Shown: positions 9,131 to 42,124, counted from the first letter of the stretch. The stretch: 42,124 bases of DNA from a virus (IMGVR_UViG_2909282993_000003:1-42124); one strand, 5' to 3'. Notes: generated by a model from the sequence alone, not told the origin. A program made the numbers and translations.

Positions 9131-10030
9131 ATGATTGATCCACTTATTAGAAACTTACAGAGTGATATTGCACTACTCCAGCTTTATATCGCGCAACGCA
9201 AACAGGCAGGCTTTCATGACATGGAAAGAATAATTGAGTCATTGACCATCTTTATGTTTCGCGCGCTGAAAATGGGTGAACTGGTAAACATGAATCAGAT
9301 TAAAGTTAATTTTCCCGCCATTGATTTAGCTGATAATAAAAACATGATAGCAGTTCAAGTTACTACGAATGCAAGTCCAGCAAAAATTAAAAAAACTATC
9401 GAATCTTTTGATGAAACAAATGAAATAGGAGAGAGTCTGAAAGATAAATACTCTACTTTATATATTTTTGGTTTTTGTAAAGCCTCAAGATACCTAACTC
9501 CAAGTTATTGTAAAATAATCGACCCCAGCTATTTCGTGAATGAACTTTGCGATAAAGCAGATGAAGATATGGTCCAGGATATGATTGACGCCATTCGACG
9601 CCATCATGATTATACATCATTACATCCATGGAGTGATAAAGATTCACTCGAAATTATACTCAATATTATTAATCGCAATGCAATAAAACATCGGATGAGT
9701 TGCGAAGGCAGTCTGTCTGATATGCTCACTGGTTTAAAAGAAATTAATGAAGTAATTACAAAAGGAACAATTCAACGTAAGCAACGTTCAAAATCGATAT
9801 CTGACTTCAAAGATCAAAGCATGGTGAAATTTATGAGAGGTGTAATGGATGATTTGTCTGTTATTCAAGCCATAGTGAACAAATCTAAAGTTAACCAAGG
9901 TGATATGGTTTATATAAGCCATGAAGATATGATTAATATTGATAAATTAAAAGCTAAAATAGCAAGTGATTCATCAGAGATTGCAAGGCTAAATAATATT
10001 GATATAACACTAAATGTTGTTGATTTATAA
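9131..10030 (+). CDS. Hypothetical protein (299 aa) in AT-rich accessory island; possible abortive-infection/defence protein
   Basis: Long uninterrupted ORF in visibly AT-rich DNA, where random stops are frequent; AT-rich promoter-like upstream region; no NTPase motif; contains an Rx4H tetrad (RNAIKH) that may or may not be HEPN-like. Confidence 0.7.
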   Translation: MIDPLIRNLQSDIALLQLYIAQRKQAGFHDMERIIESLTIFMFRALKMGELVNMNQIKVNFPAIDLADNKNMIAVQVTTNASPAKIKKTIESFDETNEIGESLKDKYSTLYIFGFCKASRYLTPSYCKIIDPSYFVNELCDKADEDMVQDMIDAIRRHHDYTSLHPWSDKDSLEIILNIINRNAIKHRMSCEGSLSDMLTGLKEINEVITKGTIQRKQRSKSISDFKDQSMVKFMRGVMDDLSVIQAIVNKSKVNQGDMVYISHEDMINIDKLKAKIASDSSEIARLNNIDITLNVVDL

Positions 10031-10344
10031 TTGTCGATTTAGCAAAACAGAGAATGCTTTGAAAGTTTCACCGAGAAATATTTATTGTGAACCTCCTTAT
10101 TGTTTATCGACTTTTACTCTCCGCTCATTGCAGTACTGTCGGAGAAGGCTACTATGTACAAGAAGCAGCTAACATAAGCGAGCATCACTATTGATATTAG
10201 GAAGAGTATATAAAAACTTCATGCTGAACCTTACAAAAGTAGGTAAACCGGCAATGGCCTAAGTGGCAGGGTCATGTTGATCCGGCACTGCCGAGCTAAT
10301 AATTAACAAGCAAATCACTCTTTCTAATAATTTGTTGAAATAAA

Positions 10345-11004
10345 CTAAATATGTATATGTTTACCAACAACCACATATGAACTACCTGCTTTGCTCCATG
10401 ATTTTATTATTTCTAAATTATTATCTGAGCATATTTTACTTACAGTATCCACATCTAATAAACCATAGTAGAAAGCATTACGAGAGTTTTGGTATATATA
10501 CCCATGCAAATGTTTAATACCGCTCTCGTACCTCTTGAAATAAGAACTTTTGTATTGATTGACAATCAGTGCTTCACCATCACTCTTTAATAATTTTCTA
10601 ATCGCACTGAGGACTTTGTGAATTGTGGATTCACATGGAATTGCGGAAAGCACGTTTGCGCAAAGTATGAAATCATAATGATTTGTTATTTTATCTATAT
10701 TTTCATAAGAAACAATATTAGCATTCTTATAGTTATTTATCACGTAATCTGGAATCGTGGTTTGTACACCTCTGATAATTTGCACTCTTTCTAGTTGTCT
10801 TCTGGAATCTAAAAATGTCACAGTTTCAAATTTATTTACTAATTGTTCTGAATATCTAAGTTTTCCACATCCAAAATCAAGGGCATTGCCATTTTTATTA
10901 GTGCTTTCAATCTGTTTACAGAGATAGTTAGATGGCATAGTGTGCGGTTTCGCTGCATTTTCTGAACGTATGTTTATTCCATTTATTTTGTAATTCAAAA
11001 TCAA
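10345..11004 (-). CDS. Class I SAM-dependent methyltransferase-like protein
   Basis: 219-aa ORF with motif I ALDFGCGKL (GxGxG), downstream acidic and hydrophobic motif YDFILCANVL and LKSDGEALIV, consistent with a Rossmann-fold methyltransferase; AT-rich; 6-nt gap after the upstream membrane-protein gene. Confidence 0.8.
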   Translation of the reverse strand: MILNYKINGINIRSENAAKPHTMPSNYLCKQIESTNKNGNALDFGCGKLRYSEQLVNKFETVTFLDSRRQLERVQIIRGVQTTIPDYVINNYKNANIVSYENIDKITNHYDFILCANVLSAIPCESTIHKVLSAIRKLLKSDGEALIVNQYKSSYFKRYESGIKHLHGYIYQNSRNAFYYGLLDVDTVSKICSDNNLEIIKSWSKAGSSYVVVGKHIHI

Positions 11005-11010
11005 CCTCGT

Positions 11011-11718
11011 TTAAAAAATATTGTTATTGTTAAAGAATTCTTTTATTTTGCTATCAGGTATTTGTCTTACTTGGCTTTCTGTTCTTGGTTTAACTGATGC
11101 TATGAAAATAAGGAAGTCAAATGCGACAAGAGAAATAATCCACAACCAAAGATTAATTAAAGAGCCAGTAACAGAGAATATATTTGTTAATTTGGCGATA
11201 CTTATTATTAAAATAGTAACAAATGCGATTACTGTATGTTCAAAGAAAACCCAAAAGTAATAAACTTTGTTCCAGAAAAGTTCAACGTAATGTTTGTCTT
11301 TTAACTCTTTAACTTCTGGGTAATACAGTTTACTCATTACCTTGTGAGATTCTTCAGTAGTTAATTTTCTCGTAACGCCTGCAATTTTTGCTAATGGTTT
11401 AATAATTAAATGACTATCCCACATCTTCCTTATTTCAATAATTTTTGCTACATTATTATGTAGATCTAAAGCTCCACTAATTACTGACCAAAAAACTGAA
11501 GATGCAATTGGTAATATGCCAAAGGTTAATATCCATTTAATAAATTCCTCGTAGTCTTTAACGGGGGGGATATACTTGGCATTAATGCCAACCAATGGCA
11601 TGTAGCCATAAATGACTAATGATAGGTAAAATATAAATGTAGTAATAAAAGTCGCCTTATGGAGCATAGGCAACATTTCATTATAACTCTTTGGTGGTTC
11701 TAACATTTTACTCTCCAA
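11011..11718 (-). CDS. Integral membrane protein (about 4 predicted TM helices), first gene of an operon with the methyltransferase
   Basis: 235-aa ORF with four long hydrophobic segments (two N-terminal, two C-terminal) around a central soluble region of about 80 aa; AT-rich; same strand as, and tightly linked to, the methyltransferase. Confidence 0.75.
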   Translation of the reverse strand: MESKMLEPPKSYNEMLPMLHKATFITTFIFYLSLVIYGYMPLVGINAKYIPPVKDYEEFIKWILTFGILPIASSVFWSVISGALDLHNNVAKIIEIRKMWDSHLIIKPLAKIAGVTRKLTTEESHKVMSKLYYPEVKELKDKHYVELFWNKVYYFWVFFEHTVIAFVTILIISIAKLTNIFSVTGSLINLWLWIISLVAFDFLIFIASVKPRTESQVRQIPDSKIKEFFNNNNIF

Positions 11719-15739: not shown

Positions 15740-15815
15740 GGCCCTTTAGCTCAGTGGTGAGAGCGAGCGACTCATAATCGCCAGGTCGCTGGTTCAAATC
15801 CAGCAAGGGCCACCA
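15740..15815 (+). tRNA. tRNA with CAU anticodon (Ile2/ileX-like or Met)
   Basis: 76-nt cloverleaf folded by hand: acceptor GGCCCTT/AAGGGCC, D arm GCTC/GAGC, anticodon loop CTCATAA, T loop TTCAAAT, 3' CCA encoded; closely resembles recalled host ileX. Confidence 0.85.
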
Positions 15816-15816
15816 A

Positions 15817-15893
15817 CCGCCACTGGCTCATCAGGAAAGAGCGTCAACCCTTTAAGTTGAGTGTGCGAGGTTCGAGTCCCCGGTGGCGGTCCA
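15817..15893 (+). tRNA. tRNA-like gene, anticodon ambiguous (loop CCTTTAA; reads UUU with a non-canonical C33); possibly degenerate
   Basis: Acceptor CCGCCAC/GTGGCGG, D arm GCTC/GAGC, T loop TTCGAGT, CCA encoded; T stem has one mismatch; anticodon loop lacks the conserved U33. Confidence 0.5.
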
Positions 15894-15895
15894 GT

Positions 15896-15971
<76 letters not shown>

Positions 15972-15974
15972 TAT

Positions 15975-16049
<75 letters not shown>

Positions 16050-16108
16050 GTCAGAGTCTTTCAGTCTGCGATGATGGGAAATCCCGGAGTGACTGAAAGA
16101 CGTTTAAG

Positions 16109-38844: not shown

Positions 38845-38855
38845 GTGGGGTGGAT

Positions 38856-40685
38856 ATGGCAGCAGTAAAAATCTCAGGTGTGCTGAAAGATGGTGCGGGA
38901 AAACCAATACAGAACTGCACTATTCAACTGAAGGCAAAACGTAACAGCACAACGGTTGTGGTGAACACGGTGGCCTCAGAAAATCCGGATGAAGCTGGAC
39001 GTTACAGCATGGATGTTGAGTATGGTCAGTACAGCGTCACCCTGTTGGTTGAAGGTTTTCCGCCTTCACATGCCGGGACCATTACCGTTTATGAAGGTTC
39101 CAGACCAGGTACGCTGAATGATTTTCTGACTGCCCCCGACGAAGGCGACCTGAAGCCAGATGTGGTGAAACGATTTGAAGATTTGACAAGTCAGGCGCAA
39201 CGAAGTGCAGATGTGGCAATATCAGCGACAAAAAGGGCAGAAGCGTTACTGTCTGAAATGCAGGGAATAGCCGATAGTTTTCCCGGTTTGCGCTTTGAGA
39301 ACTTTGACGACATCGTGAGTCGTTGCACTACTGCAATGTTAAAACTGGAACAACCCGAGGTTGTTAATACATCAATATCTTTAAAAATAAAAGAAAATAT
39401 CGATTTTAATTATGTCGGTGCAGTTAACGGATATTGCGATATTTCTGAACCAGAAAAGTATAAAGTCGAAATGTATGCTTATACAACCGGAGAGTATTTT
39501 AACGGCGACGCTAATTTGAATAGTGACGGAACTTTCTATTTCAGACGTTGCTGGACGGGAGCAAAACAGTTTCGTCTTATTCGGATTGAGGATAATGTGT
39601 GGATCACAACGCTGGAGTTTCCACTGCTCATTCGTAGCTACTGGATGCCGGAGGACGCAGACCCCGAAGTGATCAGGGTGATGAAAGATCGGTGTTACAC
39701 GTATGACCAGGCGCTGGCAGCACTGGCGTTGATGGTTCAGCGACATGAGGCTGTAGAAAGATACGTTGCGGGCTTGTGTGCGCTTGTTGATGAAAACGGT
39801 GGAGTAAAGTTTTTTGTTAACAGGCTGTCTGCCATGTCACCGCGTACCTATTACCGCTTGGGCAATGCGGCATGGGTTTATTATGCTCTTGCTTTCTATC
39901 TGGAGAAGTATCCGGACGGTACTCAGACTGCGCGGGTCAGAGAAAAACTATTGGCAGGCATTGCCTGGCTGGATACTTTTCTGGTGAGCACACCAGGCGA
40001 CCTGCGTGAAGGCCTGTATAAAGGGGGGCAGGGGCGTTATGTGGACGGCAATTTTGATGAAACTTTTGTCGCCGAATGGTGCGCACTGGAGCATAACGTT
40101 GATATCTGGTTTTTGTTTGAACTGATGGGACGGCTGGGATTTGACGGTTTCAGTGAGCGGGCTGACAGGCTGGCAAAGAGCATCATCAGAGGTCTGTGGG
40201 TGGAAGATGAAGGCCGATTTCGACAGGGGGTTCATTCAACCCACTATGACAACGCAGCGGCGCTGGATCAGTCTTCCTGGGGCGGATTGTTTGTTGCCAA
40301 TATTGATGCTGAGAAAGCGGCTAAGTGCCGAAAATATATGGGGCGTTTTTTATTTGGTACGAGGGAAACCACGGGTTACACACCGTACCACCCTGATTAT
40401 GGTTATAGTGGTCACAGCCGTGGCGTGTGGGTGGAAGGAACGGCAGGTGTGGCACTTTTTGAGCGCAAGCTGGGTAATGAGCTGAATGCGGTGAATCTTG
40501 TGGCAGCAATGGCTCCACTTTTTAATGAGTACGGTTATCGTGATTCTTGCGATGACCCGGCATACGATGTGCTGCCTTCCTGGTCATCAACAACAAACAC
40601 TGCCTGGATCATTCTGGCTGTAAAGCCAGATAATTTCTGGTTAGTGGATTCGCCAGAAATGGATGTAGGGACAATCCGCTATTGA
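38856..40685 (+). CDS. Side tail fibre protein: lambda Stf-like N-terminal anchor fused to a non-lambda C-terminal domain (possible alpha/alpha-barrel glycosidase-like depolymerase)
   Basis: First about 100 residues (MAAVKISGVLKDGAGKPIQNCTIQLKAKRNSTTVVVNTV...YGQYSVTLLVEGFPPSHAGTITVYE) nearly match recalled lambda Stf; the rest lacks the Stf Ala/Ser-rich repeats and is rich in Trp/Tyr/Phe motifs (AWVYYALAFYL, WCALEHNVDIWFLFELMG, SSWGGLFVA); an AT-rich stretch at about 39370-39550 marks a mosaic junction. Confidence 0.8.
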   Translation: MAAVKISGVLKDGAGKPIQNCTIQLKAKRNSTTVVVNTVASENPDEAGRYSMDVEYGQYSVTLLVEGFPPSHAGTITVYEGSRPGTLNDFLTAPDEGDLKPDVVKRFEDLTSQAQRSADVAISATKRAEALLSEMQGIADSFPGLRFENFDDIVSRCTTAMLKLEQPEVVNTSISLKIKENIDFNYVGAVNGYCDISEPEKYKVEMYAYTTGEYFNGDANLNSDGTFYFRRCWTGAKQFRLIRIEDNVWITTLEFPLLIRSYWMPEDADPEVIRVMKDRCYTYDQALAALALMVQRHEAVERYVAGLCALVDENGGVKFFVNRLSAMSPRTYYRLGNAAWVYYALAFYLEKYPDGTQTARVREKLLAGIAWLDTFLVSTPGDLREGLYKGGQGRYVDGNFDETFVAEWCALEHNVDIWFLFELMGRLGFDGFSERADRLAKSIIRGLWVEDEGRFRQGVHSTHYDNAAALDQSSWGGLFVANIDAEKAAKCRKYMGRFLFGTRETTGYTPYHPDYGYSGHSRGVWVEGTAGVALFERKLGNELNAVNLVAAMAPLFNEYGYRDSCDDPAYDVLPSWSSTTNTAWIILAVKPDNFWLVDSPEMDVGTIRY

Positions 40686-40946
40686 CTCTCTTGTTGTTTG
40701 ATAAACCGACAAAAGGATAAATATCAGCGATCCATTCTGTGCTGTTTGATTGTGCGCTCCCCGCTCAGAATTGCGCGTCAATTAGCCTATAAAAAATCGC
40801 GAAGATACAATACGTACTTCATTGCGCTTGAACACCCCAGGCATAATATCGCTGGATTGAAATGTTCGGACATGGCAAGCGTATGAATATGCCGTGGTGG
40901 GGCGTGCCTGCGAATCTGGCTGTTGGTTAATCGTGGGTGAAAAAGG

Positions 40947-41078
40947 TGAGCAGTATATGCAACGAAGGAGGAAACATCATTGCTGGCGGCATGGAAGGCA
41001 TGCAGGGTGTTGCTGAACCGTGTTGATACATCAACTGCACCTGATATTGAGTGGCCTACGAACCCTGTCAGGGAGTAA
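40947..41078 (+). pseudogene. Tail fibre assembly (tfa) 3'-terminal remnant, about 43 codons
   Basis: Translation ...[36 protein letters not shown] resembles the conserved Tfa C-terminus; no N-terminal part upstream. Confidence 0.5.
40968..41057 (+). repeat. Imperfect direct repeat, copy A (tfa 3' end); copy B at about 42013-42103
   Basis: About 90 bp with long identical runs (TGTTGCTGAACCGTGTTGATACATCAAC...GCACCTGATATTGAGTGGCC) shared with the window's last 110 bp; the two copies flank the methyltransferase gene. Confidence 0.7.
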
Positions 41079-41132
41079 TCATTGGGATTATGCCGCAGCA
41101 CGTCGTGCGCAAGAACGTGCTGCGGCTGGATG

Positions 41133-41801
41133 CTATTTTTTCCCTGAAGCGGAAAACATTACTACAGTACCTTTAATCTTGGTTTTAACATTCTCGAAAT
41201 GCTCTGAGAGTATATGTGTTAAGCCTTCTTCGGAATCTTTTGTGTTTGAAAAGATGCCTTTTTGATTGTAAATGCGCATCAGTTTTTGACCGAAGCTATT
41301 GTGCACAACGCCGTCACCAAGAATTGTGGCTCCGTATAGAGTTCCATCGTCAGTTAAGGCCTGCGCCGCATTGCGTATTACACAGCTTTTTGTAGATATA
41401 TTTCCAGGCAGGCAGTGAAGAAGGTAAAACATGGAAATGGAATCAAATTGACCATGTAATGCCGCGGGATAAGGTTCAAAAACATCATGGCTAATTTTAT
41501 GTTTAATTTTTGATTCCCCAGCCCTTGTCGATGCCGCGTTCAGGCTAGCTTCGTTCAAATCCATTAAAGATATCAGACTACTCTCAGGTACGTGAGTAAG
41601 GTAAAACCCAGTTCCAACACCAATATCCAGATGGTTGTTACCTAAATGTTCCAGAAAGTGTGGAAGAAGGTGTTCCTTTGTAGGACATCCCCATGCAAGC
41701 CGATTTGATACTCCCAAAACCCACCAGTCATAAAGCTTTAGGGTAAGTGGTGTGTAAATTTTAGCCCCATCATCTGTGTTTTTTTTCATTAATTTCACCA
41801 T
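41133..41801 (-). CDS. Class I SAM-dependent methyltransferase (moron at the tail-fibre end)
   Basis: 222-aa ORF with motif I HLDIGVGTGFYL and downstream Rossmann-type motifs; opposite strand to the tail genes; AT-richer than the flanks. Confidence 0.8.
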   Translation of the reverse strand: MVKLMKKNTDDGAKIYTPLTLKLYDWWVLGVSNRLAWGCPTKEHLLPHFLEHLGNNHLDIGVGTGFYLTHVPESSLISLMDLNEASLNAASTRAGESKIKHKISHDVFEPYPAALHGQFDSISMFYLLHCLPGNISTKSCVIRNAAQALTDDGTLYGATILGDGVVHNSFGQKLMRIYNQKGIFSNTKDSEEGLTHILSEHFENVKTKIKGTVVMFSASGKK

Positions 41802-41857
41802 GTTATAGTTTTATTTGTGAATTAAATCAATTGTGGCGATGAATTACAAGGGGTTAA

Positions 41858-42124
41858 ATGCTGCCGCAGCATAGCGATATTGAAATAGCCTGGTATGCTT
41901 CGATACAGCAGGAGCCGAATGGCTGGAAGACCGTCACCACACAGTTCTACATCCAGGAATTCAGTGAGCATATTGCGCCACTTCAGGATGCTGTAGATCT
42001 GGAGATCGCAACGGAGGAAGAAAACTCGTTGCTGGAAGCCTGGAAGAAGTATCGGGTGTTGCTGAACCGTGTTGATACATCAACCGCACCTGATATTGAG
42101 TGGCCGACTTCACCTGCAGAGTAA
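41858..42124 (+). CDS. Tail fibre assembly protein, C-terminal portion (likely 5'-truncated tfa)
   Basis: 88-aa ORF ending ...[36 protein letters not shown], the conserved Tfa C-terminus; shorter than a typical Tfa (about 190 aa). Confidence 0.6.

Follow-up and report, generated by a model that had tools for sequence, protein, structure and literature searches.

Background

The genes tfaD, ybcY (a pseudogene), tfaX, appY and ompT follow one another in this order in the DLP12 prophage of Escherichia coli K-12, where the first three (b0561–b0563) form a block that combines a methyltransferase gene with sequences related to tfa, the tail fibre assembly gene of phage lambda. Here, we compare with this block the region between positions 40,686 and 42,124 of a viral DNA stretch of 42,124 nucleotides (nt), IMGVR_UViG_2909282993_000003:1-42124 (the window), in which a methyltransferase gene on the minus strand lies between two 3′ fragments of tfa. 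The region very probably corresponds to the tfaD–ybcY–tfaX block that E. coli lambdoid prophages commonly carry as cargo at their right end, an arrangement that is already known, and the two tfa pieces would be scars of two independent events.

Cargo genes of lambdoid phages have reportedly been brought under the concept of the “moron” by Juhala, Hendrix and colleagues. The methyltransferase shares with such genes a guanine plus cytosine (GC) content below that of its neighbours, an orientation on the opposite strand, and predicted promoter-like and terminator-like signals.

The literature retrieved on ybcY, tfaX and tfaD consists of incidental mentions, namely a promoter table based on systematic evolution of ligands by exponential enrichment (SELEX), an Hha toxicity assay and gene-context notes on ompT, and holds nothing functional. 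In the toxicity assay, in which Hha was overexpressed, a ybcY mutant was like the wild type (PMC2408971).

A known block at the right end of lambdoid prophages

The comparison involves the following features, given with their positions in the window and with lengths in nt, base pairs (bp) or amino acids (aa).

40959–41078, plus strand: 3′ remnant of tfa, tfaD type, the last 39 codons and the stop
40959–41059, plus strand: upstream copy of a 101-nt direct repeat found by repeat search, 84% identical to 42008–42108
41092–41126, between the convergent tfa and methyltransferase genes: GC-rich hairpin of 12–13 bp, with a 12-nt inverted repeat that is 100% complementary
41133–41801, minus strand: intact class I S-adenosylmethionine (SAM)-dependent methyltransferase gene of the YbcY family, an open reading frame (ORF) of 222 aa
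41802–41830, minus strand: sigma-70 promoter-like hexamers TTGATT-17-TATAAC, read from the sequence
41858–42124, plus strand: TfaX, an 88-aa ORF with a tfa C-terminus
41858–41962, plus strand: start of TfaX (~35 codons), derived from the 5′ part of a 79-aa phrog_3893-family gene
41962–42124, plus strand: tfa-derived part of TfaX, equal to codons ~141–194 of a 194-aa Tfa
42008–42108, plus strand: downstream copy of the direct repeat, 84% identical to the upstream copy

Gene order and orientation are those of K-12 DLP12, with 95.6% DNA identity across window positions 40959–42104, and the hairpin, the promoter hexamers and the TfaX fusion point are shared as well. In K-12, however, tfaD is complete, ybcY a pseudogene, and tfaX has its stop at codon 61 and is followed by appY–ompT, whereas in the window 39 codons of the upstream tfa are left, the methyltransferase gene is intact, TfaX carries a complete Tfa-type C-terminus and the right attachment site (attR) comes directly after. 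The block is also carried by the viable lambdoid phages ev243, 2G7b, PhiR26_1, PhiR49_1, PhiR68_2, Turner and Kati (the match to Kati spans the same part of the query as those to PhiR68_2 and Turner), which have other fibre modules on the left and, on the right, a lactone hydrolase gene or appY, then ompT and int. A full 194-aa Tfa precedes YbcY (reverse strand) and a 101-aa Tfa fragment in PhiR26_1, and in PhiR68_2 and Turner the block follows stf–tfa–pin–ynaE. The methyltransferase is 98–99% identical in the block-bearing phages and 98% identical to a cluster of 6,589 E. coli sequences.

Prevalence was counted in 5,426 complete E. coli genomes and 50,697 phage records. The methyltransferase gene, with at least 80% of its length covered, is present in 3,798 of the genomes, at 95% identity or more in all matching records but one. 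A stretch of 209 nt across the promoter spacer and the TfaX fusion point occurs in 3,436 of the 5,426 genomes, and the left joint of the window, on the side of the tfa truncation, in only 31. Among the phage records, only 15 contain the methyltransferase gene, all of them E. coli lambdoid phages.

Both tfa fragments align to the C-terminal part of lambda Tfa (Caudo_TAP, PF02413) and are 83–100% identical to tfaD-type sequences. Unlike the full-length comparators of 187–194 aa, they are without the N-terminal two thirds of the protein, and they do not stand behind a cognate stf C-terminus, the preceding fibre being of a non-Stf C-terminal type.

The downstream tfa fragment is the tail of a chimeric gene

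The downstream fragment had been recognized in the initial annotation, which was made from the sequence alone, as a tfa C-terminus, and TfaX indeed matches Caudo_TAP at positions 75–131 of 131 (expect value, E, 3.5e-26). Its first ~35 residues match phrog_3893, a 79-aa family, and not Tfa. In Citrobacter freundii (loci L019–L021), a methyltransferase gene 90% identical to that of the window has an intact 79-aa ORF as its divergent neighbour (phrog_3893 positions 1–78 of 79, E 7e-38), and the Citrobacter DNA matches window positions 41121–41944 at 92% identity. Tfa homology in TfaX starts at 41962, and the fusion point lies inside ~41945–41962, where a loose CAGGxAxxxAGxxAG patch is common to the three sequences aligned at the joint. 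These sequences suggest an illegitimate joint of the microhomology type, through which codon ~35 of the 79-aa gene came to be followed by tfa sequence from codon ~141.

All TfaX variants examined have one and the same 5′ fusion point, that of K-12 TfaX, but their C-termini and the flanks that follow come in at least five forms. The ending is ...TSPAE in the window and ...EEPDTM, ...ANPVRE, ...AVPVME, ...ARKRTA or ...ALGMKLFV... (in a version of 101 aa) elsewhere, or else the frame stops at codon 55 or 61. Compared with other copies of tfaX, the window differs at 0–1 of 105 nt in the part derived from the 79-aa gene and at 11–13 of 117 nt in the tfa-derived part, where the differences are mostly synonymous. 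This tfa-derived part is 96.5% identical to the 3′ end of PhiR26_1 tfa1 across 144 nt, and from 41975 to ~42400, past attR, the DNA matches the Stx1a phage EH2115 at 93.7%. The tfa-derived part of TfaX has apparently been swapped here for a different tfa allele, which would have brought along the attP arm of a phage that integrates between potC and potB. The single 5′ fusion, the varied endings, the step in divergence and the Stx1a-type flank together mark the tfa tail of TfaX as a site of repeated homologous crossover, and the earlier view of tfa 3′ ends as recombination joints is borne out in this respect.

TfaX might alternatively be a functional mini-chaperone or regulator, and tfa–methyltransferase–tfaX a working module in which, for example, the methyltransferase modifies fibre or chaperone proteins. 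The 88-aa ORF matches a recurrent family over its whole length (phrog_2341 positions 1–88 of 88, E 2e-59, the non-Tfa-like N-terminus included), it keeps the C-terminal region of Tfa, open versions are common, and a SELEX promoter signal is present on the tfaX side of the spacer. Against such a module stand the at least five unrelated C-terminal endings and the premature stops at 55 and 61 codons, which are common and include that of K-12. Further, the predicted −10 hexamer on the tfaX side (TTAAAT) overlaps the tfaX ATG, the 611-aa fibre type of this prophage occurs in a phage without any tfa, and homologues of the methyltransferase are found without a nearby tfa in Citrobacter, Salmonella and Enterobacter. 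We consider a working module highly improbable; both TfaX and the upstream tfa remnant are most likely non-functional.

The phrog_3893-family ORF (79 aa in Citrobacter, 99 aa in phage HK225) is a regular gene after the tail-fibre region, often divergent from dinI, in lambdoid phages of Escherichia, Klebsiella, Erwinia, Cronobacter and Pantoea. Some records call it “DNA polymerase V”, probably wrongly.

The upstream tfa remnant adjoins a different fibre module

Two genes lie to the left of the upstream remnant.

38850–40685, plus strand: 611-aa side tail fibre, N-terminal domain of the lambda Stf type followed by a ~480-aa non-Stf C-terminal part
40698–40958, plus strand: decayed small gene of the phrog_1443 family, delimited by a three-way alignment with phiSTEC1575-Stx2k and ev243

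The fibre has a Pfam phage_tail_N domain at residues 5–130 (E 2e-62) and full-length matches to phrog_4128 and phrog_13714, and its C-terminal ~480 aa have no sequence relative in Pfam or the PDB. Fibres of this type are normally followed by a gene of the phrog_1443 family, which probably encodes a membrane protein; in phiSTEC1575-Stx2k the same fibre is followed by such a small gene, dinI and int, without any tfa. The copy in the window has lost 1 nt near 40836 and 62 nt between 40910 and 40911, and carries ev243-type sequence in its final ~48 nt, the intact ev243 gene covering phrog_1443 positions 1–96 of 97 (E 6e-58).

The remnant that comes next had been placed at about 40947–41078 and described as N-terminally deleted. 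It is a genuine, N-terminally deleted piece of tfa, but the homology to full-length tfa starts at 40959, in a reading frame that is open from 40950. The 42-aa translation of 40950–41075, which holds the 39-codon remnant, matches Caudo_TAP at positions 95–130 of 131 (E 2e-14), and the Prokaryotic Genome Annotation Pipeline (PGAP) calls the 120-nt remnant a pseudogene, “tail fiber assembly protein, missing N-terminus”. It had been considered earlier that the 88-aa ORF might be a normal, complete member of a gene family and that the upstream remnant might not align to Tfa as a protein; the ORF is such a member, and the remnant does align. In ev243 the intact small gene is followed, after a gap of 20 nt, by an identical tfa remnant, and the aligned joint is the same as that of the window. 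Phages ev243, 2G7b and PhiR49_1 all match the window from 40896 on, the truncated remnant included, with the joint aligned for ev243 alone. As the joint at 40959 is shared with ev243 and adjoins the phrog_1443-family gene, 175 nt from the methyltransferase gene, the truncation of tfa is unrelated to any insertion of the methyltransferase; it marks the point where a Tfa-independent fibre module meets the ybcY block, a scar of a fibre-module swap.

These joints also bear on the origin proposed in the initial annotation, in which the methyltransferase gene was captured in this prophage by recombination between two copies of tfa, or else broke a single tfa by its insertion. The gene is indeed flanked by direct repeats of tfa 3′ sequence, which extend over 101 nt at 84% identity rather than the about 90 bp first given (100 nt at 86% identity by BLASTN, whose E of 5e-24 rules out a chance repeat). 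The downstream fragment, moreover, is physically fused to cassette-derived sequence, and an ancient event of a similar kind did join the cassette to a tfa 3′ end. However, the last ~39 codons of tfa are present in both fragments, which thus overlap in content and are not two halves of one split gene. An identical block stands behind an intact tfa in K-12 DLP12 and PhiR26_1, and the block follows ynaE–pin in PhiR68_2 and Turner, which argues against breakage by insertion. The truncation point at 40959 belongs to the joint with the phrog_1443 gene, and the downstream fusion, common to 3,436 genomes, is nothing specific to this prophage. Capture or insertion in this prophage is very unlikely; the idea of capture through tfa recombination is retained for the downstream fragment, a scar left when the cassette became joined to a tfa 3′ end, and not for the upstream remnant.

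In some genomes PGAP labels the 611-aa fibre a “glucosidase family protein”. The chromosomal record NZ_CP024269.1 annotates just the first 417 nt of the fibre gene, as a truncated pseudogene, despite the intact ORF.

An intact and selected methyltransferase of the YbcY family

The enzyme encoded at 41133–41801 had been assigned to the class I SAM-dependent methyltransferases, and the profile searches confirm this. It covers phrog_2132 at positions 1–218 of 218 (E 8e-156) and exceeds the Pfam gathering cutoff for Methyltransf_12 (37.6 bits vs 30), and Methyltransf_23 (28.8 vs 27), Methyltransf_25 (27.6 vs 27) and Methyltransf_11 (24.6 vs 21.2) pass their cutoffs as well. An alignment of 36 homologues has 58 invariant columns, among them the DxGxGxG motif I (D59, G61, G63, G65) and two motifs specific to the YbcY family, an N-terminal YDWWVL...W and HCLPG. 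The AlphaFold model has a mean predicted local distance difference test score (pLDDT) of 90.5 and the alternating strands and helices of a Rossmann-like fold. Against homologues from phages, Citrobacter, Salmonella and Enterobacter, the ratio of nonsynonymous to synonymous substitution rates (dN/dS) is 0.08–0.25, and the gene is kept by purifying selection.

The annotated ATG at 41801 directly adjoins the −10-like TATAAC. Homologues are 218 aa long and start at Met5, which is invariant across the alignment, so the real start is probably at 41789, giving a 218-aa protein and a transcript with a very short leader. The hexamers TTGATT-17-TATAAC are listed for ybcY in the RpoD promoter set obtained by genomic SELEX in K-12, and the spacer between ybcY and tfaX is bound by H-NS (PMC3946193). 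A simple consensus scan for promoters and terminators returned nothing useful in the region and did not call these hexamers. At the other end of the gene, the hairpin folds as RNA with −25.5 kcal/mol (z −4.9) on the minus strand and −30.1 kcal/mol (z −3.7) on the plus strand, where a run of six uridines (U6) comes after the extended stem; the minus strand is without a U-tract. The hairpin is a probable terminator. We infer that the methyltransferase gene is autonomously transcribed in this strain.

The description of the gene as moron cargo holds. Its GC content is 40–43%, compared with ~50% for the tail genes, or 0.40–0.435 across 41100–41800 vs 0.50–0.54 in the fibre genes. In HK225, a phrog_3893-family ORF (99 aa) comes after tfa and directly next to dinI, which is on the reverse strand, and no methyltransferase gene separates the two, whereas in Citrobacter the methyltransferase lies between dinI and the phrog_3893-family ORF. 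Two genes that are adjacent in HK225 are thus set apart by the methyltransferase in Citrobacter, as is typical of a moron insertion.

Proposed history of the block

From these comparisons we infer an order of events around a constant core from ~41093/41121 to ~41960, which holds the hairpin, the minus-strand YbcY gene, the divergent promoter spacer and 35 codons of the 79-aa gene. In an old event, an illegitimate joint at the short, partly similar patch would have fused the first ~35 codons of the 79-aa gene to tfa sequence from codon ~141 on and so given rise to TfaX. This joint is now fixed in most E. coli, and its tfa tail has since been reused for homologous crossover, generating the varied C-termini and right flanks. 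In a later event, a fibre-module exchange would have replaced stf–tfa by a Tfa-independent fibre and its phrog_1443 gene, leaving 39 codons of tfa. The methyltransferase gene itself is very probably functional cargo.

Three points weigh against this explanation. The 5′ part of TfaX is nearly invariant and its ORF is open in many lineages, and TfaX could therefore have a function. The SELEX evidence for the promoter stems from K-12, whose ybcY is a pseudogene, and the consensus scan was without a promoter. Finally, the order and the mechanism of the ancient fusion are read solely from present-day arrangements.

Putative substrate and significance

The methyltransferase probably acts on a small molecule or a lipid; its most likely target in the lysogen is a small molecule or the head group of a lipid, not DNA. 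Its relatives by sequence in the PDB are JHAMT (E 1.5e-5) and UbiG, and the fold neighbours of the AlphaFold model are the small-molecule methyltransferases PmtA, JHAMT, MM_2633 and Coq5. The likeness is distant, with only 11–21% sequence identity between YbcY and JHAMT, UbiG/Coq5, bacterial PmtA and natural-product C-, O- and N-methyltransferases, and the curated NCBIfam cutoffs for PmtA, RquA and CpaM were not reached (15.7–17.4 bits vs 175–390). Homologues of 67–90% identity occupy the cargo ends of other islands, with no tfa nearby, and those of 56–65% identity stand alone in the chromosomes of Salmonella and Enterobacter, without a restriction partner.

YbcY could instead be a DNA (or RNA) methyltransferase, an orphan enzyme that serves the phage in anti-restriction or epigenetic roles, and a search with the PADLOC defence models did return one match, to mad2 (E 0.004, 14 bits). 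That match is confined to the generic SAM-binding methyltransferase domain, however, and does not place YbcY in a defence system, and the sequence has none of the catalytic motifs of DNA methylases that were looked for, (D/N/S)PP(Y/F/W), PCQ and ENV, nor any “PP”. The protein is a single Rossmann domain of 218 aa without a target-recognition domain, every PDB relative detectable by sequence with E < 0.5 is a small-molecule enzyme, and the chromosomal homologues lack a restriction partner. A nucleic acid substrate is scarcely to be expected, and a small molecule or lipid is the preferred class.

In Salmonella enterica, the homologue (56% identity, a cluster of 1,111 sequences) is a single gene between a PMT_2-family glycosyltransferase gene and a cytochrome b561-like gene, near hrpA, and this neighbourhood could hint at the substrate.

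The arrangement adds little new biology, as it is annotated in K-12 and most E. coli genomes have it; modest additions are that TfaX is of chimeric origin and that its tfa tail is a recurrent crossover site. Since TfaX joins a 79-aa gene to a tfa 3′ end, annotation pipelines keep calling it a partial “tail fiber assembly protein”. Fragments of tfa mark recombination joints and are useful for finding the limits of tail-fibre and cargo modules in prophages, and the methyltransferase, which ~70% of E. coli genomes carry intact and under selection, could be screened for its substrate at little cost. Two wider readings, taken together, are speculative and rather unlikely, namely that YbcY is a lysogenic-conversion enzyme that methylates a host envelope lipid, a quinone or a small metabolite, and that the tfa tail of TfaX is kept as a portable “handle” of homology. 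If true, the conversion role would explain why ~70% of E. coli genomes keep an intact, selected copy, and the handle would let lambdoid phages exchange the cargo block along with whatever adjoins it on the right.

Prophage setting and other features

Positions 40600–42124 are 100% identical to chromosomes of enterotoxigenic-type E. coli, e.g., NZ_CP024269.1, which also matches the whole window except for at least one indel upstream of the studied region. The annotated chromosomal record contains a complete lambdoid prophage, from int through the tail genes, between potC and potB. Comparison with the empty site of K-12 gave a 14-bp attachment core, CACCTT(C/T)TTATTCA, and the two ends.

L005 1844–1857: attL
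L005 44374–44387, ~250 nt past the end of the window: attR

The window ends at the stop codon of tfaX, short of attR, and the block forms the extreme right end of the prophage. The initial annotation had pointed to the sequence beyond the window for the rest of a tfa region; it holds no more tfa, and ~250 nt of non-coding DNA lead to the attR core and potB.

The annotation places four tRNA genes (Ile, Lys, Thr, Gly) behind the Q antiterminator gene, at L005 17740–18049 (window ~15740–16050). The prophage does contain a second methyltransferase gene, as had been noted, at 10345–11004 on the minus strand. It encodes another class I enzyme of unrelated sequence, and a paralogous origin of the two is ruled out (BLASTP E 2.8). 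This gene is part of an island at 9131–11718, between the replication genes and the Q region, which also encodes a SMEK-domain protein that matches the PADLOC model Aga_REase-PNTD1-PNTD2 (E 1e-20) and a 235-aa protein without a family match, and which may be defence cargo.

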